A stretch of DNA of 64,000 nucleotides from a phage. Each line of letters starts with the position of its first letter. The first letter of the stretch is position 1. The notes under the pieces were generated by a model, which saw only the letters and a list, made by a program, of their open reading frames with translations, did no database searches and was not told the origin of the DNA. The DNA lies in the sequence record PZ445526.1. One strand, 5' to 3'. Both the position numbers and the translations under genes were made by a program. Below are positions 734 through 41,773 of the stretch, one piece after another.

Positions 734-1420
734 TTAAAAATCGTGGGTAGAATCAGCTTCAAGAGCTACTACATAATTCGCATGTTCACCTTCAAATTTA
801 GCAGCACCTTGTTTACCTTTTGCCCAGAGCAGAAGTTTATAATTTCCTGGTTGCATTTTCATATTTGCCATATTGATAATGAAATTAAATGTATTTTCAC
901 CATCATAATCACCAAGAGTCAAAGAATATTTAACACGGGTCAGAGCAGAATCTTCTACTTTATTAAAACCGTTAATTACGATTTTACCTTCTTTTACCGT
1001 GATAGCAATTGTATCAATTTGCAGACCACGAGATACACGCAACAGTTGTTGAAGGTCTTCAGCTTTAATTTCAGTAACAACAGATGCTACCGGGAATGGA
1101 ATTGGTTTATTAGGAGCAACTACTGTGCTCGGATCGGCTGCTGGCCAAAAAATTGTTGAGCGGGCATCAGCAATTTTAATATTTCCATCTTCTGACTGGG
1201 AAATTTCTGCATCATCATTAACTAGAGACAGAATACCGAGAAAACCGTTCAAATCGTAAATTGCTACATCAAAATCAATAACGTCAGAAATATTTGCTTC
1301 CGCATAAGTTGTACCATTAACTGCGCGAGTCATAATAAATTGACCGGATTTAAGCATAATACCGGAGTTAATAGTAGCGAAATTTTTAAGCAGAGCAGTA
1401 GTATCTTTAGACAGTTTCAT
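734..1420 (-). CDS. 45: DNA polymerase sliding clamp
   Basis: 228 aa, MKLSKDTTALLKNFATINSGIMLKSGQF...; length and sequence match T4 gp45 by recall. Confidence 0.95.
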   Translation of the reverse strand: MKLSKDTTALLKNFATINSGIMLKSGQFIMTRAVNGTTYAEANISDVIDFDVAIYDLNGFLGILSLVNDDAEISQSEDGNIKIADARSTIFWPAADPSTVVAPNKPIPFPVASVVTEIKAEDLQQLLRVSRGLQIDTIAITVKEGKIVINGFNKVEDSALTRVKYSLTLGDYDGENTFNFIINMANMKMQPGNYKLLLWAKGKQGAAKFEGEHANYVVALEADSTHDF

Positions 1421-1475
1421 GTAATTTCCTTCAATTCAAATGAGATTTAATTTTATAACTAATTTAATAAAGCAA

Positions 1476-1865
1476 TTAACGATTAAAATCAGCCGCAATT
1501 GTTTCCGCAACAATTTGAGCAGCAACAATTAAACGTTCATCTGCATTACCGCAATAATCATCTTCAAGGCGTTCACCACATGAAGTCATAATAAATTTAG
1601 CACCGGCGTTTAGGGATTCTGCAGTATGTTTGCGCATTAGTTCAATCCATTTATTACTTACTTCACGATCGATAGCTTCATAATACGCATGACGAGCAGG
1701 TGCAGATTTAATTTTATTCTGAATAACTTCCATTGCGTTATCAGAAAGAGACAAAACCCATGCTCGACGAATTTTATTTTGGTTTTGTGGATTTGATTCA
1801 GAACGCACGTGTTTTGGCTGAATATCTTTTACATCAACAGTATAATTCACAGTAATTTTAGTCAT
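1476..1865 (-). CDS. rpbA: RNA polymerase-binding protein RpbA
   Basis: 129 aa ORF between genes 45 and 46, position and size as T4 rpbA. Confidence 0.8.
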
Positions 1866-1874
1866 AATACACCT

Positions 1875-2063
1875 TTAGTCATAATAATCAGTAACAGTCC
1901 AAGCTTCATTTCTATTGGACATTATTTTTGTATATTCTGCTTTAAATGCATTCCTAAGCATAGATTCAGTAACTATATGCTCTTCATTAGAAAAATTATT
2001 TCTCAGAATATATCGTTTTATTTCAGGAATGGTTAATAGATGCTGTCCGGTTGAATATTCCAT
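1875..2063 (-). CDS. hypothetical protein (T4 45.2 position)
   Basis: 62 aa ORF in the rpbA-46 interval. Confidence 0.5.
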   Translation of the reverse strand: MEYSTGQHLLTIPEIKRYILRNNFSNEEHIVTESMLRNAFKAEYTKIMSNRNEAWTVTDYYD

Positions 2064-2118
2064 GTTTTTCCTCCATAGAGATTATACTCTAATAAATTAA
2101 AGCATAATCTCTTATAAA

Positions 2119-3801
2119 TTAAACCATTACAGTAAATCGACCAACTTTCTTCATTTGAAGATGCTGACCGTATGCTTGTGGGTCATGGTCTCTATGCGAA
2201 ATAACAAAAACATTAGTATTTTTTAAACTATCTAAAATAGTTGAAATAGCTTTTACACCTTCAACGTCGGTCGCTGAATCAAAAACTTCATCAAGAATCA
2301 GTGTGTTTATTTTAACACCTGAAACTTTTTCAGCAATATCACGCCAAGTAAATAAAAGAGCAATATCAATTCGCGCTTTTTCACCTTGACTAAATGAAGC
2401 ATAACTAAAATCTTCACGACCACGGGATTTAATTGTCTCATTAAATTCTTCATCTAATGTAAACACATAATCCGCTTCCATTATTTTAAGATAATGGTTA
2501 ATCTGCTTATTAAATAATGGAATGTACTTTTTAATAATAGCACCTTTAATACCAGAATCTTTGAGCATATCAGTCAAAATTCCTCGGTGGTATTTTTCCA
2601 TTACTAAATTAGTTTTTGTCTTAACAATTTTATCAAGTTCTTCTTGAAGCAGTGCTATTTCATCAGCATGGTCAATAAACTCAGAAGATGCTTTTTCTAT
2701 AGCTGCTTTAACTTTTTTAGCTTTATCTACCGTCGTGATTAGAGATTGCTTTTTATTGCGAATATCATTTGCCAACGACTGTTGGGTTTTAATATTATCT
2801 CGGTATTCATCAACAAGAACTTTTAAATTATCACGATGTGTTGAAAGCTGTTCAAACGAATGCGTACATTCAGAAACTTTATCTTTAATTTTAGAAACAA
2901 CTTTATCACCGGAACTTAATTGTGACAAACAGGTTGGACATAATCCACCTTCGTGATACATATTAATGACTTTATTATACGAGTCAATTTTTGATTTAAT
3001 TAAAACTGCTTCTTGACCGATTTTATTAAATGCATCAGTCGGGTCTTCATCCAAAACAATATTAACTAATCTTTCATTAGCTTCTTCTATTTCCGATTTT
3101 AGCGTTCTAGCTTCCTTTGCCAAATCGTCATACATATTCTGCAGACGAGTAAGGTTGTCACCAGACAATTTTTTCTGGCGTTCAACGTTATCATTATATA
3201 TTTTAATTTGTTGGATAATACTATCTTTTTTAACATCAAGCACTTGGTTCTGCGAATTTAATTCACGTATTAGTGCTTTATTAAGCTTATCCATTTCAGC
3301 TAATGTTCCTACCTCGAGCAGGTCTTCCACAAGCTTTCTTCGCGCAGGGGTCGACAAACCCATGAAAGGGGTATACCCTGCTGTACCAAGGACAACAATC
3401 TGCTTGAAACTGGCATATGACATTCCGATAAGCTGTTCAAATTCTGCTTGGAAATCTTTACTGCTGGCAGATTCATTAAGACGTGTACCGTTAACGGTGA
3501 TTTCGAAAACGTTTGGTTTTTGTCCTCTTTTGATATAGTACTTTTTCTCATCATATTCCATCCACAGTTCAACTAAAAGTTCTTTCTTATTTGTGCTGTT
3601 TATTAATTGACCTTTCTTTACATCACGGAATGGCTTGCCAAAAAGCCCAAATGTGATGGCTTCTAACATAGTAGACTTACCACCGCCATTTCGTCCAGTA
3701 ATAAGAGTTTTTTGAACCTTATCTAATTGAATGTCAATAGGATTTCCACCTACTGACATTATATTTTGATACCTAACTCGGTTTAGTTTAAAATTCTTCA
3801 C
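2119..3801 (-). CDS. 46: recombination endonuclease subunit gp46 (Rad50/SbcC-like ATPase)
   Basis: 560 aa; Walker A GRNGGGKST near N-terminus, long coiled-coil middle, CPTC zinc hook, C-terminal Walker B LILDEVFD. Confidence 0.9.
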   Translation of the reverse strand: MKNFKLNRVRYQNIMSVGGNPIDIQLDKVQKTLITGRNGGGKSTMLEAITFGLFGKPFRDVKKGQLINSTNKKELLVELWMEYDEKKYYIKRGQKPNVFEITVNGTRLNESASSKDFQAEFEQLIGMSYASFKQIVVLGTAGYTPFMGLSTPARRKLVEDLLEVGTLAEMDKLNKALIRELNSQNQVLDVKKDSIIQQIKIYNDNVERQKKLSGDNLTRLQNMYDDLAKEARTLKSEIEEANERLVNIVLDEDPTDAFNKIGQEAVLIKSKIDSYNKVINMYHEGGLCPTCLSQLSSGDKVVSKIKDKVSECTHSFEQLSTHRDNLKVLVDEYRDNIKTQQSLANDIRNKKQSLITTVDKAKKVKAAIEKASSEFIDHADEIALLQEELDKIVKTKTNLVMEKYHRGILTDMLKDSGIKGAIIKKYIPLFNKQINHYLKIMEADYVFTLDEEFNETIKSRGREDFSYASFSQGEKARIDIALLFTWRDIAEKVSGVKINTLILDEVFDSATDVEGVKAISTILDSLKNTNVFVISHRDHDPQAYGQHLQMKKVGRFTVMV

Positions 3802-4061
3802 AAAAGATTCCTTTTAATGTATCTTTTAGACCATTCTATCATATCATCATAATCTAAAAAGTATTCATCAAATTCAGCCATGCAAACAACACCTTGTGCT
3901 GTTTTTGATGTAATATAAATTATTCCAACATATCTAGAATCTTCTTCGGTATAATCAATGTTTGCTATGAATTCATCATTAATGTCAAATGTCGAAAACT
4001 TCACAGTATGCATCCTTAATACAAGATACAGCCATATCTCGTAATGATTTAGGTGTGTCAT
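3798..4061 (-). CDS. hypothetical protein (T4 46.1 position); true start may be the internal ATG at 4013
   Basis: 87 aa ORF; overlaps next ORF by 77 nt if the first ATG is used. Confidence 0.4.
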   Translation of the reverse strand: MTHLNHYEIWLYLVLRMHTVKFSTFDINDEFIANIDYTEEDSRYVGIIYITSKTAQGVVCMAEFDEYFLDYDDMIEWSKRYIKRNLL

Positions 4062-4248
4062 TATCTAAAATGTTGAAGTTAAAAGATACAGCCCAGTCAG
4101 TGCAGACCGTGACCTTTTTAATACAATTATCTTCAACCTCTAACGGTTCAAACCAATATTCAATAATTTCTTTATGTCCAATATCATCTTTTACTTCGCA
4201 TTCAAAATGCTGACTCATCATAACATTTTTAAATTCATCAAAAGTCAT
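3985..4248 (-). CDS. hypothetical protein (T4 46.2 position)
   Basis: 87 aa ORF, stop overlaps gene 47 region. Confidence 0.45.
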   Translation of the reverse strand: MTFDEFKNVMMSQHFECEVKDDIGHKEIIEYWFEPLEVEDNCIKKVTVCTDWAVSFNFNILDNDTPKSLRDMAVSCIKDAYCEVFDI

Positions 4249-5264
4249 TGTGTTGCCTCTACATATAACTGATTTGCATATTGAATAAGTGCTTCGCGAT
4301 CAGAATCAGTGATGTCTGGAATTGCATTAATGTATTCTTCCATCAATGTCTGAAGAGATTGAACTTCAACTTCTTCACTGTCATCTGACTCGACAGAGTT
4401 ATCAATCTTTGACACAACTCGTAACGAATGCACAACTTTTTCTAGTTCAGATTCGAACTTCGTCAGATTTTTGTCTACTTCAGTTACTATAACACGTACT
4501 GATAGATTTGTAAAATCTTTATAGTCAATTTTTCCTTTAAATGGATAATGAATTCTACGATGCCAGGTAGTATTGTTTGGAATAAATTCCATTCGTTCTG
4601 TTTCTGTATCAAACACCCAGAACCCACGAGGGTCATTCTCGTCACCTGCAGTTAGTGTCCATGGTGTCCCAATATATCTGACGTTTGCAGCCTCAGAGAT
4701 AGTATGGAAGTGACCAGACCACACTTCTTTATAAGTCTTAAGGAAATCAGGTTCAAGACCGTGAGATTTCATTCCTTTATAAAAATAAAATCCATTCAGT
4801 TCCCAGTGACCAACACAAAAAGAAGCAGATGAAGTTTTGATGTGCTCAAGAATTTCACCAGTATTTTCTTCACACATCCAAGGAATTAAATCAATTAAAC
4901 ATCCGTCAAAATCTACCGTAGTAGGCTTATCATATACTTTAACATTAGGATATTTAGCCAAAAGCTCAGTAGAGGCATTTGGATGCATTACATTTTTGTA
5001 GTGGAGATCGTGATTTCCTACAACAGTATGTAGGGTAATACCAGCATCATCAAGCATTTGAACTATTTCACGGGCGAACTCCATAGTTTTATGCGTGATT
5101 GCTTTTCGCACATCAAAAATATCACCGTATTGAATCCATACCGTAATTCCATTTTTCTTAGAATATTCTATCGCTTGCTTAATTCCATCAATTTGAATAC
5201 CGCGAATCCACTCATCATCAGCTTTAACGCCTAAATGCCAATCACCTAAATTTAAAATTTTCAT
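4245..5264 (-). CDS. 47: recombination nuclease subunit gp47 (Mre11-like phosphoesterase)
   Basis: 339 aa; MKILNLGDWHLG... calcineurin-like phosphoesterase motifs (GDxHxG, GDIFD, GNHD). Confidence 0.9.
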   Translation of the reverse strand: MKILNLGDWHLGVKADDEWIRGIQIDGIKQAIEYSKKNGITVWIQYGDIFDVRKAITHKTMEFAREIVQMLDDAGITLHTVVGNHDLHYKNVMHPNASTELLAKYPNVKVYDKPTTVDFDGCLIDLIPWMCEENTGEILEHIKTSSASFCVGHWELNGFYFYKGMKSHGLEPDFLKTYKEVWSGHFHTISEAANVRYIGTPWTLTAGDENDPRGFWVFDTETERMEFIPNNTTWHRRIHYPFKGKIDYKDFTNLSVRVIVTEVDKNLTKFESELEKVVHSLRVVSKIDNSVESDDSEEVEVQSLQTLMEEYINAIPDITDSDREALIQYANQLYVEATQ

Positions 5265-30771: not shown

Positions 30772-31133
30772 TACAAACTTTCAGTAAAGGTACGAGCGAT
30801 AACGTCGCGCTGCTGTTCCGGAGTCAGAGAGTTAAAGCGAACTGCATAACCGGATACACGGATGGTCAGCTGCGGATATTTTTCCGGATGCTTAACTGCA
30901 TCTTCCAGAGTTTCGCGACGCAGAACGTTAACGTTCAGGTGTTGACCACCTTCAATTTTAACTGTAGGTTGTGGCTCAATTTCAATTTCACGGGCATGCA
31001 AACCGTAGAAAATTTCTGGGTCTACAAAAGAGTCCTCTTTAAAGGTTTTAGAGACAATAATTCGTGCTTGAATACCATCTTCAAAATAAATAGTACCTTT
31101 ATGTGTGCCTTCAAGAATTTGATATGCTTTCAT
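30771..31133 (-). CDS. autonomous glycyl-radical cofactor (GrcA/YfiD-like; T4 Y06I-like)
   Basis: 120 aa; C-terminal glycyl-radical motif [15 protein letters not shown]; C-terminal ~60 codons visibly GC-rich. Confidence 0.8.
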
Positions 31134-31140
31134 ATAAACC

Positions 31141-31470
31141 TCAATTAGAAAATAAATTTATCCAAGATTGTTCTTTAATTAAAAATGGCTCAGAATCATA
31201 TGCCATTAAACTTTGCGTAATTAATCCTTTAAAAGGTCCATCAATAAATTCCATGGTAAAATATGGAATTTTATTCATTAGCCGTGCATTAGGAGCAGTG
31301 CACAAAACTCTGCATCCTTTGAATACGCCTTTTTGTAATTTGTATTGCTTGGGATAAAATTCGCTTAAAATGTTATTTTTTGCCAAAATTTCAAAATGAT
31401 TCACCAATTTATTTTTAATAGTTTTTGGCGAAAAATAAAGATATTCGAAAAGCTGAGTGTCTGTCATCAT
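31141..31470 (-). CDS. hypothetical protein
   Basis: 109 aa from ATG ([13 protein letters not shown]...); ATGA overlap with upstream gene. Confidence 0.4.
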
Positions 31471-32006
31471 TGCATTCCGATTACGAAAAACTGTGGACGA
31501 GTAATACCACCAATACAACATTTAATATTACAGCAGCAGTGTACAGTGTCAATATGGACACTATAAATCTTATCCATATCAGGAGATTTGACAGGCTCAT
31601 CAATTATATACAAAATTCGCGAAAGCGATAAACCTCTGAACTTGCTTCCTTTATTACCAATAAAACTGCGTACAGAATCAGTAAATAAACGAAAACGTAT
31701 ATCATCATTAGAATAACGCGAAAATTCCTTTTTGATGTTATTTGCAGAAATTTTAGCGTAAGCTGAAGTATTAGAAAGAACAATAACTGTTCCGCCATCA
31801 TACAACCAATTAGCAGCGAAGTTAGTCACAGCAATTGATTTACCAGATTGACGTCCACCATCTAGTCGAAGTGTACAATACTGTTTAAGTAAGTCTTCAA
31901 ATGGCGGGATATATTCGTTTTTACAAATTTCTTCTACTCTAGCATCAGAATGGTGTGTAAAAGCATTCATCAGGGATAGATAAGGACCAGTTAAAAATGT
32001 TCTCAT
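31467..32006 (-). CDS. small P-loop NTPase
   Basis: 179 aa from ATG (MRTFLTGPYL...); Walker A GGRQSGKS, Walker B ILYIIDE. Confidence 0.45.
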   Translation of the reverse strand: MRTFLTGPYLSLMNAFTHHSDARVEEICKNEYIPPFEDLLKQYCTLRLDGGRQSGKSIAVTNFAANWLYDGGTVIVLSNTSAYAKISANNIKKEFSRYSNDDIRFRLFTDSVRSFIGNKGSKFRGLSLSRILYIIDEPVKSPDMDKIYSVHIDTVHCCCNIKCCIGGITRPQFFVIGMQ

Positions 32007-32147
32007 TTTGTTCTCTCTAGGTTTGGGCCATTCCATGGCGCATGAATTGTCCATTTCTCTATTTACCCATTACCGCACTTGGGCTCGACCTTATTACAGG
32101 TTGGCGGGAATCCCTCACAGAATCATGAGGTCCAGGTTGTTCCCATG

Positions 32148-32621
32148 TTATTTGAACGATTTAACGTACTGAATAGAACCTTTACTATTCACAAAGGCAA
32201 TTTTACCATTTTTGTTATACATGGTAGCAGTACGTTGATAACCGTAAGTTTGTTTACCAGATTGATAACCAACTAATGCGAAATTATCTTCACCCATTTT
32301 ATTCTGCTTAGCACGAATGCGTTCATGACCATGTGCCATAAGAACCTTAGCATCACCAGTTGCAATGGATCGACGAGTTTTTTCATCTTCAACTGTATTA
32401 ACAAAGTCGTCAAATGAATCAAATTTAGCATGAGATTTATTATACAGTTTTCCATCTACTGCATAATTATATCCTTGTACATCCATCTCAACTTCTGTAC
32501 CATCATCCAATACAGCAGTGATTTTTTGACCTTTTTTAAATTTCAAAAGATCAGTAAAAGATTCAGCAATAATTTGAGAATTAATAGCTGCTTCAGTAAT
32601 AAATTCTTGATATGTTTTCAT
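32148..32621 (-). CDS. internal-protein-like virion protein with capsid-targeting leader (ipII position)
   Basis: 157 aa; N-terminus MKTYQEFITEA matches the T4 IP/Alt leader; own early promoter. Confidence 0.6.
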   Translation of the reverse strand: MKTYQEFITEAAINSQIIAESFTDLLKFKKGQKITAVLDDGTEVEMDVQGYNYAVDGKLYNKSHAKFDSFDDFVNTVEDEKTRRSIATGDAKVLMAHGHERIRAKQNKMGEDNFALVGYQSGKQTYGYQRTATMYNKNGKIAFVNSKGSIQYVKSFK

Positions 32622-32674
32622 GTGTTTCCTTTAAATGTAAATATTTTTATTATTCTATCCAAGTAATTGTGAAT

Positions 32675-32703
32675 ATATTATCACAATTCTAGGAGCTGTA
32701 AAC
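32675..32703 (-). promoter_or_regulatory. T4 early promoter
   Basis: Minus strand GTTTACAGCTCCTAGAATTGTGATAATAT. Confidence 0.5.
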
Positions 32704-32739
32704 TGCTTTTATTTATAAGCGTCCCAAGTATAAGCTTTA

Positions 32740-33321
32740 TTAAGAATTACCACGGGCTGCATTAGCAACGGCGTAAGCGTACTGAATATTAGCGTCTTTA
32801 AACTTACCTTTAGAGGTATCTATTTCTGCCTTAAAGCCGCCTTTAGTCATAACATCGGCAAATTCTTTACGGAAAGCCATTGCATCAAGACCTTTCCATG
32901 ATGATTTATGCTTGGCAAATTCAAGACCGGCAAAGTTAACAGCCTTAGCTAATTTATTATCAATAACCCATTTACCGGCTTTAGGCACAAACTTCGGACC
33001 TTTCTGTTTAGAGAACAGTTTTAAATTCCAGCGGCGAAGGTCTGCATCAGCTTTAACAAATTCTGAGTCTAAGTTACTAGCAACAACATCTTCAATATGA
33101 GCAAATTTAAGTCCGTCAACTTCAATATTTAAATCGGTACGCCAGCGAAGTCCTTCCCAAGCGAAGGCTTTAAAGTCGGAAGCCTTTGTAGCTAAGTACC
33201 GTTCAATAGGAGCTGTTTTAGGGTCAAAGCCGTTTCCCGATCGGTAGGTCCACTCATCTTTATTAATGCCTTTGGCCTTTACTACAGAAGCTTCAGCAAT
33301 AAATTCTTGATAGGTTTTCAT
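32740..33321 (-). CDS. ipIII: internal protein III
   Basis: 193 aa, MKTYQEFIAEASVVKAKGINKDEWTYRSGNGFDPK...; matches T4 IPIII by recall. Confidence 0.85.
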   Translation of the reverse strand: MKTYQEFIAEASVVKAKGINKDEWTYRSGNGFDPKTAPIERYLATKASDFKAFAWEGLRWRTDLNIEVDGLKFAHIEDVVASNLDSEFVKADADLRRWNLKLFSKQKGPKFVPKAGKWVIDNKLAKAVNFAGLEFAKHKSSWKGLDAMAFRKEFADVMTKGGFKAEIDTSKGKFKDANIQYAYAVANAARGNS

Positions 33322-33375
33322 GTGTTTCCTTTAAATATTTTAATTAGTAATCTATCTATTCAAGTAACTGTGAAT

Positions 33376-33405
33376 ATACTATCACAATTCCAAGAGAAAG
33401 TAAAC
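33376..33405 (-). promoter_or_regulatory. T4 early promoter upstream of ipIII
   Basis: Minus strand GTTTACTTTCTCTTGGAATTGTGATAGTAT. Confidence 0.5.
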
Positions 33406-33409
33406 AACT

Positions 33410-34378
<969 letters not shown>

Positions 34379-37606: not shown

Positions 37607-38173
37607 TTATTTGCTTAGTTTAGTTATTATAGCTTCTGCGGCAGCTTTTAGCTTAGATGCGGTGTTAATACGATTTTTAATTTCAGTATACGCATCGCCA
37701 AGAACATCAAGGCTATCAGAATAAACACTTACACTATTGCGTTCGCTATTTGAAATAGAACCTTTAGTTTTACGATCAAAATCGGTGTATACGTCTTGAA
37801 GATCGCGTGCTGCCTTCTTTGCATCATCCAATGCATCAAGAGCTTTATTCAAAGCATTAACGTATTTTTTAGTATCGAACATATTCTTAGAAATTTTAAC
37901 AGGCGCACGTTCAGGAGTAGCTAAGGCAGATTTAGGAAGAACCTGTTTGCCAGATGCCAGTTTCTTAGAAATTTTGAAAAACGCTTTATTGAAATTATTT
38001 TCTTGACTCATCGTAAAAGAACTATTATCAATGTTATACATTTCAATAGCTTTAGCTTTCCACTTAAGAAAATCGCCACGGTCTTTTGGGTCCAAGTGGA
38101 AGAATACTTTAGTAAGATCTGCTTCAGATGGTAATTTTGCTGCTTCGGTTAAAAATTCGGCATAGGTTTTCAT
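37607..38173 (-). CDS. internal-protein-like virion protein with capsid-targeting leader
   Basis: 188 aa; N-terminus MKTYAEFLTEAAKL resembles the T4 IP leader. Confidence 0.5.
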   Translation of the reverse strand: MKTYAEFLTEAAKLPSEADLTKVFFHLDPKDRGDFLKWKAKAIEMYNIDNSSFTMSQENNFNKAFFKISKKLASGKQVLPKSALATPERAPVKISKNMFDTKKYVNALNKALDALDDAKKAARDLQDVYTDFDRKTKGSISNSERNSVSVYSDSLDVLGDAYTEIKNRINTASKLKAAAEAIITKLSK

Positions 38174-38956: not shown

Positions 38957-39032
38957 TGGTCGAGGCAGTAGGGATCGAACCTACGACCCAGGACTTAGAA
39001 GGTCCTTGCTCTTCCTTCTGAGCTATGCCTCG
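38957..39032 (-). tRNA. tRNA-Arg (anticodon UCU)
   Basis: Hand-folded cloverleaf: acceptor CGAGGCA/UGCCUCG, anticodon loop CUUCUAA, T-loop GGUUCGAUCC, encoded CCA. Confidence 0.8.
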
Positions 39033-39036
39033 GATT

Positions 39037-39111
39037 TGGCGGACGTGATAGGATTCGAACCTATAACCAATCGCTTAACAGGCGATCGCTCTGCCATTGA
39101 GCTACACATCC
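39037..39111 (-). tRNA. tRNA-Asn (anticodon GUU)
   Basis: Acceptor GGAUGUG/CACGUCC, anticodon stem AUCGC/GCGAU with loop CUGUUAA, T-loop GGUUCGAAUCC, encoded CCA. Confidence 0.75.
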
Positions 39112-39115
39112 AAAT

Positions 39116-39202
39116 TGGTGGGGAGTGATGGAGTCGAACCACCCGAGTCGCAATGACAATGGATTTACAGTCCACACCGCTACCTCTACGGGATAACTCC
39201 CC
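39116..39202 (-). tRNA. tRNA-Tyr (anticodon GUA), long variable arm
   Basis: Acceptor GGGGAGU/ACUCCCC, anticodon loop CUGUAAA, long extra arm, T-loop GGUUCGACUCC, encoded CCA. Confidence 0.7.
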
Positions 39203-39212
39203 CAAATTAATT

Positions 39213-39287
39213 TGGTGGCCCTGGGTGGAATTGAACCACCATCTGGCGATTATGAGTCGCTTGCTTGAACCTTCCAGCTACAGGGCC
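39213..39287 (-). tRNA. tRNA with CAU anticodon (T4 tRNA-Ile counterpart, or Met)
   Basis: Acceptor GGCCCUG/CAGGGCC, anticodon loop CUCAUAA, T-loop GGUUCAAUUCC, encoded CCA; same position as T4 tRNA-Ile. Confidence 0.7.
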
Positions 39288-39288
39288 T

Positions 39289-39364
39289 TGGTGCTGATTG
39301 ACGGAATCGAACCGCCGACCTTCTCATTACAAGTGAGTTGCTCTACCTACTGAGCTAAATCAGC
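39289..39364 (-). tRNA. tRNA-Thr (anticodon UGU)
   Basis: Acceptor GCUGAUU/AAUCAGC, anticodon loop CUUGUAA, T-loop GGUUCGAUUCC, encoded CCA. Confidence 0.75.
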
Positions 39365-39369
39365 AAAAC

Positions 39370-39459
39370 TGGCGGAGGCGATAGGATTTGAACCTATGAG
39401 TCGCCGGAGCGACTGCCGGTTTTCAAGACCGGTGCATTAAACCACTCTGCCACGCCTCC
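39370..39459 (-). tRNA. tRNA-Ser (anticodon UGA), long variable arm
   Basis: Acceptor GGAGGCG/CGCCUCC, anticodon stem CCGGU/ACCGG with loop CUUGAAA, long extra arm, encoded CCA. Confidence 0.75.
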
Positions 39460-39461
39460 AG

Positions 39462-39535
39462 TCTCCGTGGCAGGATTTGAACCTACGACATTCTGCTCCC
39501 AAAGCAGACGCTCTACCAAACTGAGCTACACGGAG
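39462..39535 (-). tRNA. tRNA-Pro (anticodon UGG), CCA not encoded
   Basis: Acceptor CUCCGUG/CACGGAG, anticodon stem UCUGC/GCAGA with loop UUUGGGA; 3' end reads ...GAGACUGG. Confidence 0.75.
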
Positions 39536-39545
39536 TAAATTAAAT

Positions 39546-39619
<74 letters not shown>

Positions 39620-39624
39620 AAATT

Positions 39625-39711
39625 TGGTGCGAGAAGTGGGACTCGAACCCACAAGGAAATCATTCCGCAGCATTTTAAGTGCTGTGCCTTTACCAATTTG
39701 ACCATTCTCGC
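39625..39711 (-). tRNA. tRNA-Leu (anticodon UAA), long variable arm
   Basis: Acceptor GCGAGAA/UUCUCGC, anticodon stem CAGCA/UGCUG with loop CUUAAAA, long extra arm, encoded CCA. Confidence 0.75.
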
Positions 39712-39712
39712 G

Positions 39713-39785
39713 CTGGGAATAAAGGACTCGAACCTTTGCATCCTGGAATCAAAATCCAGTGCCTTACCAACTTGGCTAATTCCCA
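39713..39785 (-). tRNA. tRNA-Gln (anticodon UUG), CCA not encoded
   Basis: Acceptor UGGGAAU/AUUCCCA, anticodon stem CUGGA/UCCAG with loop UUUUGAU, T-loop GGUUCGAGUCC. Confidence 0.75.
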
Positions 39786-41131: not shown

Positions 41132-41440
41132 CTATTTTATTCCGCGTGATGCAATTGTGTTCTGTCGTTTAACACCAGTTTGTTTAAAGTCATGATTGTC
41201 GATTTGATCGGTACGAGCAACTCCGAATGATGATTTGATCTTAGCTTTAGATCCTTTAGTTATAGAAATAAACATCTCAGAAGCCCCTTTCTTAAAGTCC
41301 GAGGCGATTACTTCAACGCCGTTCTTAGCAAGTGACTTCAGAATTGCCTCCGCGTATTCATCGTCAAGACTTGCCTGAGTATTAATAACGAATGTCTTTG
41401 GCGCAGCCGCTTCATTGATAAATTCTTTAAATGTTTTCAT
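41132..41440 (-). CDS. internal-protein-like virion protein with capsid-targeting leader
   Basis: 102 aa: MKTFKEFINEAAAPKTFVINTQ...; own early promoter. Confidence 0.55.
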   Translation of the reverse strand: MKTFKEFINEAAAPKTFVINTQASLDDEYAEAILKSLAKNGVEVIASDFKKGASEMFISITKGSKAKIKSSFGVARTDQIDNHDFKQTGVKRQNTIASRGIK

Positions 41441-41470
41441 TTTATTTTCCTAATTAATTTTGATAGGGTA

Positions 41471-41500
41471 ATAGTATCACTACCCTATTTAAAAGTAAAC
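41471..41500 (-). promoter_or_regulatory. T4 early promoter cassette
   Basis: Minus strand GTTTACTTTTAAATAGGGTAGTGATACTATTACCCTATCA. Confidence 0.55.
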
Positions 41501-41773
41501 TCATTTTAAATAAATTGCGTATTTTTTATAACCCGCTGACTCATGACGAAGACCCTTATCATTAGCAAAACGCTCAATGTTGTTAATTTGATTCTGATCA
41601 AGTTCAGAGATGTCAAACACGAAAAAGTTACGTTTGTTACCAACTGTTATATAGTCAGTTAAATCAATATCATATAGGTAATTGATGTCAGCAATCAAAG
41701 TCTTGACAGCTTTGCTAATTTTTACTTTTTCGTTAAAAGCAGCTTCAGCAATAAATTCTTGATACGTTTTCAT
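41501..41773 (-). CDS. internal-protein-like virion protein with capsid-targeting leader
   Basis: 90 aa from ATG: MKTYQEFIAEAAFNEKVKISKAVKT...; identical leader to IPIII. Confidence 0.55.
   Translation of the reverse strand: MKTYQEFIAEAAFNEKVKISKAVKTLIADINYLYDIDLTDYITVGNKRNFFVFDISELDQNQINNIERFANDKGLRHESAGYKKYAIYLK

Follow-up and report, generated by a model that had tools for sequence, protein, structure and literature searches.

In phage T4 the gene directly downstream of ipIII encodes internal protein II, and the locus described here raises the question of what occupies that position in a close relative, and by what route it came there. The window, by which we mean the whole 64,000-nucleotide stretch of phage DNA that was analysed (PZ445526.1), belongs to Tequatrovirus, and the closest phages in the collection, G4498 and Shfl2, are ~96% identical to it. 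An initial annotation, made from the sequence alone, held that the ipII position has been taken over by a different and larger leader-bearing protein with an early promoter of its own, a swap of cargo of the kind expected for injected proteins under selection by host defences. The ORF in question (Table 1) begins with ATG, encodes 157 aa with the N terminus MKTYQEFITEA, and does lie directly downstream of ipIII, across a spacer of 118 nt; its upstream neighbour, an ORF of 193 aa, is T4 IPIII at 193/193 residues. Gene e (33410..33904) precedes ipIII, with nudE further upstream in the direction of transcription, and a homologue of vs.8 (31467..32054) is the downstream neighbour. The same two neighbours, ipIII upstream and vs.8 downstream, flank the corresponding gene in PST and Shfl2. 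T4 IPII is 100 aa long, in agreement with the length of about 100 aa given in the annotation.

Table 1. Features of the two internal-protein (IP) loci, in positions of the window
Feature	Position	Strand	Basis
ipIII, second leader-bearing gene of the locus	32740..33321	-	PHROG 5341
Left homology arm, ~140 nt: gene e 3'-end relic, promoter, hairpin, RBS, leader	32590..32729	-	Direct repeats, blastn breakpoints
Early-promoter-like site TTTACA-16-TAATAT, extended -10 TG	32675..32702	-	Promoter scan; homology to T4 ipII promoter region
AT-rich hairpin, GAATTGTGA / 8-nt loop / TCACAATT, -10 hexamer in loop	32665..32694	-	RNA fold
Shine-Dalgarno AGGA within AAAGGAAACAC, upstream of ATG	32627..32630	-	Sequence reading
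ip4 (ipIV) coding sequence	32148..32621	-	ORF list; 157 aa plus stop
Capsid targeting sequence MKTYQEFITE, codons 1-10, ending in gp21 I-x-E motif	32592..32621	-	Leader alignment
Putative propeptide extension, codons 11-20, second I/L/M-x-E site (I18-A19-E20)	32562..32591	-	Conservation
Right homology arm, ~90 nt, non-coding, ip4 stop to vs.8 start	32055..32147	-	T4 homology resumes at 32144
Second IP locus, adjoining 57B: leader-bearing gene, 102 aa, PHROG 2667	41132-41440	-	
Second IP locus, adjoining 57B: leader-bearing gene, 90 aa, PHROG 7673	41501-41773	-	

The occupant is ip4. The coding sequence matches T2 ip4 at 467/474 nt, and the Ip4 amino-acid sequence is 100% identical in T2, RB14, SH7, pSs-1 and many others, where the database labels read 'ipIV / Ip4 internal head protein' or 'internal virion protein'. 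It has a full-length match to Pfam DUF7412 (PF24183; 319 bits, E 5.7e-96, cut-off 27; residues 1-157 on model positions 1-158) and a match to PHROG 3155, 'internal virion protein' (339 bits, E 6e-102), and its sole significant match in the BFVD viral structure library is Ip4 of Enterobacteria phage K3 (Q38388, 99% identical, TM 0.96). A tblastn search of 50,697 phage records located Ip4 in 471 of them (291 at 99% identity or more) and T4-type IPII in 198, so that T4 is the carrier of the less common protein. The cargo is thus different from IPII, as initially proposed, but it is not a novel one: the gene is already named ip4 in T2 and is widely annotated in hundreds of relatives, and what is seen here is the ordinary shuffling of injected-protein genes that is already in the literature for this locus. 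Among the entries for this gene, the 39-aa database protein P0020 is ip4 frameshifted at an AAAAAA run in codons K28-K30 (32532-32540, minus strand). A 2025 preprint lists this homopolymer, in T2 ipIV, as a candidate contingency locus, with zero slippage measured; apart from that mention, literature searches gave nothing specific on the function of Ip4.

The alternative that the initial annotation had allowed for, and for which it had proposed an alignment with T4 IPII, is that this protein is IPII enlarged by an insertion or a C-terminal extension, and hence a divergent ortholog. Ip4 does share with IPII the site after ipIII, an upstream cassette that is collinear at about 97% nucleotide identity, a 10-residue leader that is the same apart from A9T, and a basic product, and full-length BLASTP aligns the two at 31% identity over 77 residues (E 7e-7); IPII also weakly matches DUF7412 (E 0.022, 15 bits, under the 27-bit cut-off). 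Nearly all of this protein similarity, however, lies in the 11-residue leader, in which 10/11 residues are identical to the T4 IPII/IPIII leader and which by itself scores 24.3 bits (E 2e-7, pairwise). With the leader removed, the bodies have no significant similarity (16.5 bits at best, E 0.07 from one pairwise alignment, and out of register), and the mature part of IPII is both unrelated and shorter (90 aa versus 137-147 aa for Ip4). The PHROG families differ as well, 3155 for Ip4 and 7857 for IPII, with no match of Ip4 to the latter; the DNA homology with T4 ends abruptly at codon 11; and in one Klebsiella phage ip4 and ipII stand side by side. Because the leaderless bodies are unrelated and the families differ, IPII with an insertion is excluded, and we consider descent of Ip4 from IPII by any such enlargement to be extremely improbable. 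The reading of the locus as ip4 in the position of ipII stands.

What was exchanged is nevertheless more than ipII, and in this respect the swap as first described requires correction. Relative to T4, homology is unbroken from nudE down to 32590 (about codon 11), a stretch that takes in e, ipIII, the spacer and the leader, and it is picked up again at 32144, which is four bases beyond the ip4 stop and corresponds to the end of denV in T4. Between these breakpoints the window holds 445 nt, the ip4 body, versus 748 nt in T4, comprising the ipII body, a spacer and denV; the ip4 body stands in for the ipII body plus denV, not for ipII alone. In T4 denV adjoins ipII; across the whole 64 kb of the window, neither the IPII body nor denV has a tblastn match. 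Relative to T2, in which ip4 lies immediately after e without ipIII, the window has ~700 nt extra (ipIII) between two direct copies of a ~147-nt cassette, 33436-33290 and 32729-32590. The blastn breakpoints against both T4 and T2 lie at the edges of the left-arm cassette. The first ip4 codons match the T4 ipII cassette (AAAACATAT) and those from codon 9 onward match T2 ip4 (ACTGAAGCAGCT), and since the T4 ipII-like codons turn T2 ip4-like at that point, the crossover lies inside the leader. The breakpoints cleanly show the coding leader itself as a recombination arm.

The left arm is directly repeated upstream of ipIII at 33290-33436 (~147 nt), in direct repeat families D1-D3 that are 88-96% identical at a spacing of about 700 nt, and the Shine-Dalgarno AGGA is invariant in five aligned cassettes. 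The downstream copy opens, after ipIII, with an 18-nt relic of the last gene e codons (ACTTGGGACGCTTATAAA; 32710-32729, minus strand), which indicates that the duplicated unit spanned the end of e into the leader. A single base change in this relic creates TATAAATA, the T4 late-promoter consensus, at 32710-32717, some 90 nt ahead of ip4. T4, in which 2 nt are deleted at this spot, is without the motif, and in the window the motif is not enriched (11 occurrences versus 10.3 expected).

The right arm is common to T4 (after denV) and T2 and, less closely, to a Klebsiella phage with an Ip4 of 70% identity, where the segment is likewise kept downstream of ip4. It contains several in-frame stops, so vs.8 must begin at 32054 or later; T4 annotates the same segment (minus strand) as the N terminus of a 219-aa Vs.8. 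A structured RNA in this G+C-rich stretch was considered and rejected, as it has no Rfam match and folds no better than shuffled sequence (z +0.24). Over 31000-34000 the only Rfam hit was to SNORD116 (E 0.14), which is below threshold and inside the ip4 coding sequence, and therefore a chance match.

Neither do ip4 and ipII behave as strict alternatives for a single site. The Klebsiella phage, vB_Kpn_K65_evo9, carries e-ip4-ipII in tandem, phage G4498 has four ip genes in the locus (e-ip-ip-ipIII-ip4), and PST has ipIII-ip4, along with five IP differences from T4 (PMC4122927, Comeau et al.). From this variation among arrays it follows that the ip genes are independent cassettes in a variable array and not strict alleles. 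Mobility of such a cassette would depend on its two conserved arms, the ~140-nt left arm and the ~90-nt non-coding right arm before vs.8, between which a cargo gene may be swapped, added or removed by homologous recombination within the arms. Recombination of this kind would account for the pairing in the window of a T4-type ipIII with a T2-type ip4, without ipII and denV.

The left arm also carries the signals from which ip4 is presumably expressed. The initial annotation credited ip4 with an early promoter of its own, and there is indeed such a site in the spacer (Table 1), although the bare-consensus scan that finds it is not statistically unusual (3 sites versus 5.4 expected in the region); since the scan is not above chance, support for the promoter comes from conservation and position. 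The stretch is collinear with a T4 region in GenBank X04567, both lying in a single alignment of 97% identity, and an ipII -10 element and an inverted repeat B/B', a possible terminator, are annotated in that T4 region. It is also close to the PST/T4 consensus TTTACW-N17-TAYWAT of PeSL promoters (PMC4122927), from which it departs by a spacer of 16 nt and by the third base of the -10 hexamer. RNA folding of the whole ipIII-ip4 spacer gave z -1.8. The hairpin in which the -10 hexamer lies has a loop that is flipped with respect to the T4 ipII cassette, as revealed by a 30-nt match to T4 that runs in inverted orientation: the stems are identical, and the 8-nt loop TAATATAT is the exact reverse complement of the T4 ipII loop ATATATTA. 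The flip (32665-32694, minus strand) rewrites the -10 hexamer, and the ipIII cassette has the same orientation as the window.

PeSL-like promoter/stem-loop elements have been noted at the two highly variable IP loci, which harbour more than 30 IP variants (PMC2839356, Arbiol et al., citing Repoila et al. 1994), and the cassette described here resembles the PeSL type in several ways. Both are intergenic combinations of promoter, stem-loop and RBS that flank non-essential genes and serve as a site of recombination; a stem-loop overlapping the -10 box, as in the window, is one described class; and the repeated promoter/stem-loop/RBS unit occurs here in two copies with the T4 and T2 junctions at its edges. 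The IP-locus elements are nevertheless analogues and not homologues of the PeSLs of RB49/phi1 (PMC2839356), from which they differ in a T4-early-type promoter and a weaker, AT-rich stem, and unlike PeSLs the homology arm of the window reaches into the coding leader. PST, also unlike the window, has no promoter/hairpin between ipIII and ip4.

That leader gives an indication of what becomes of the protein. In T4 the first 10 residues of IPIII are enough to bring a protein into the prohead core, and foreign proteins joined to ten residues of this leader are packaged; positions 4 and 7 are important to targeting, as are positions 8 and 10 to processing (PMC9026906, Kuhn and Thomas). Ip4 retains all of these experimentally mapped determinants (Y4, F7, I8, E10) in an N-terminal targeting sequence of about ten residues, and M1, K2, F7 and E10 do not vary among 13 aligned homologues with identities down to 61%. 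Cleavage by the gp21 prohead protease takes place after the Glu of L/I-x-E, and known propeptides have 10-19 residues (PMC9026906); in the same 13 homologues E20 is likewise unvarying and position 18 is occupied only by I, L or M, a conservation which suggests a second I/L/M-x-E site at residues 18-20 and a mature protein of 137 aa. The cleavage site of T4 IPI, behind ITE at residue 19, lies at a comparable distance. By these motifs gp21 would cleave Ip4 after E10 and, probably, again after E20, with a predicted mature product of 16.5 kDa and pI 9.14 (residues 11-157, 147 aa) or of 15.5 kDa and pI 9.28 (residues 21-157, 137 aa). A small and basic mature protein is characteristic of the T-even IPs, and so is a location in one of the two variable IP loci behind a promoter/stem-loop element, such as ip4 has between e/ipIII and vs.8.

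By analogy with the T4 leader experiments, then, MKTYQEFITE would bring the precursor into the prohead scaffolding core, gp21 would trim it, and the basic product of 15.5-16.5 kDa would remain with the packaged DNA and be injected along with it. The same delivery device (targeting sequence, gp21 cleavage and co-injection with DNA) serves IPI*, Ip2 and Ip3. The searchable literature, virion proteomics included, yielded no direct evidence of Ip4 in virions or of its injection, and this, together with the early-type promoter, is what might be said for a protein that acts early in the cytoplasm, is not packaged in useful amounts and bears its leader as a relic. A relic would hardly be expected to keep both the leader and the two cleavage motifs in homologues down to 61% identity, or to persist as an altered leader (MNFEQFLNES) down to 34-36% identity; T4 ipII and ipIII share the promoter type and their products are packaged, and the ten residues concerned package foreign proteins in T4. 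We therefore regard a relic leader as very unlikely, and packaging of Ip4 by its leader remains our preferred reading.

In the window Ip4 is one of four proteins at the two classical IP loci, the others being Ip3 and the products of two 'internal head protein' genes at the second locus (41132-41773). Ip1, Ip2 and denV were not found in the 64 kb, which cover both loci; for the T4 IPI body the sole match is to the 7-residue start of the leader. A fifth leader-bearing ORF (188 aa, MKTYAEFLTEAAKL..., 37607-38173, minus strand) lies outside these loci, downstream of the tRNA cluster, and belongs to PHROG 2280, which is labelled 'unknown function' and not internal protein. The tRNA cluster itself (38957-39785, minus strand) comprises ten genes, with Asn, Tyr and Met among them; that of T4 has eight, without these three but with an Ile tRNA missing from the window, and where T4 carries segB between the Ile and Arg tRNAs the window has no visible segB-sized gap.

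AlphaFold supplied with 13 close homologues gave an unusable model (pLDDT 50), whereas addition of three distant homologues from an exhaustive HMMER search raised the pLDDT to 83.8 (15 sequences, pTM 0.78). In this model residues 1-20, up to the putative second cleavage site, are of low confidence, whereas the rest of the chain (21-157) folds into a compact alpha/beta domain, for the most part at pLDDT >90 except around 121-130. The model has no significant structural relative and no match among solved structures, and a sequence-profile search of the PDB with Ip4 gave nothing below E 0.06.

The family to which this domain belongs is narrow: a search of 5.8 billion proteins grouped at 90% identity gives 14 clusters, and one of 1.84 billion grouped at 50% identity gives 7 representatives. 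Its three distant members (34-36% identity) bear other leaders (MNFEQFLNES, MNFKDFLNES...LNES and ...SLNES), and because they pair the domain with other targeting peptides, the Ip4 cargo domain appears to be older than the Tequatrovirus leader. One of them, P0015 (36% identical to Ip4), has a 95%-identical relative on a 381-kb IMG/VR contig (IMGVR_UViG_3300011242_000001), where positions 1005-4474 (L008) hold four M-x-F-x-x-F-L-N-E ORFs of 138, 243, 83 and 157 aa, one of which is the Ip4 homologue; by its sequence, this cluster resembles an array of internal-protein genes that has another leader and belongs to a very large uncultivated phage. A scan of viral contigs for another distant homologue, P0016, returned no match.

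It remains to consider what Ip4 would do once injected. Each of Ip1, Ip2 and Ip3 of T4 inhibits a different GmrSD type IV restriction enzyme, without cross-protection (PMC12373910), and IPII in particular inhibits the ECOR21 GmrSD/BrxU enzyme. The host-defence rationale of the initial annotation is well founded for these three proteins, with which Ip4 shares the two variable loci and a small, basic product; for Ip4 itself it is an analogy. The mature parts of IPI*, Ip2 and Ip3 have no sequence relation to Ip4, and comparison with these characterized GmrSD inhibitors revealed no relation of sequence or fold. Moreover, when ip4 to ip10 were assayed in 2025 against active GmrSD variants no reproducible inhibition was seen (PMC12373910, Supplementary Fig. 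9; Silas et al.), so that the simplest anti-restriction idea for Ip4 has already been tried without success. Within Tequatrovirus Ip4 is near-invariant (291 records at 99% or more) and varies by presence or absence, which counts against the rapid diversification that is sometimes expected of a protein in an arms race.

The same observations lend something to the view that Ip4 is packaged but chiefly structural, a basic, DNA-associated or assembly-assisting component of the head such as has in part been proposed for IPIII: the protein is basic (pI about 9.2) and near-invariant, it had no reproducible effect on GmrSD variants, and in IPIII mutants heads assemble more slowly and polyheads are more numerous (PMC9026906). 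Against a mainly structural role, phages of the family can dispense with the gene, T4 being altogether without ip4; it comes and goes as a cassette beside proven anti-restriction proteins; and all three T4 IPs proved to be defence inhibitors, IPIII included in spite of its assembly phenotype. We judge a chiefly structural Ip4 to be unlikely, if a more serious contender than either of the alternatives weighed above. By analogy with Ip1, Ip2 and Ip3, an anti-defence role is slightly more probable than not; in it, Ip4 inside the host would most likely neutralize a defence acting on incoming glucosyl-hmC DNA. The account as a whole, of ip4 as a T-even internal head protein gene exchanged as a cassette, we hold with considerable confidence. 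The sequence comparisons directly establish the identity of the gene, the structure of the cassette, the breakpoints and the conservation of the leader, whereas packaging, cleavage and injection are deduced from the T4 leader experiments and the anti-defence role from the analogy with Ip1, Ip2 and Ip3. More tentatively, and at somewhat less than an even chance, Ip4 may be injected to inhibit some host defence outside the GmrSD variants assayed, with a fold that has no solved relative and an old cargo domain that is portable between capsid-targeting systems.

For the phage itself, the IP repertoire and the published work together predict resistance to ECOR17-type GmrSD and sensitivity to CT596- and ECOR21-type systems, and the lack of denV in the window predicts a UV sensitivity like that of T2. 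As the commonest occupant of the locus, and one without a structural relative, Ip4 would be a sensible choice for the next anti-defence screens. If its cargo domain is indeed old and portable, leaders and cargo domains would recombine independently of one another across distant phage lineages.
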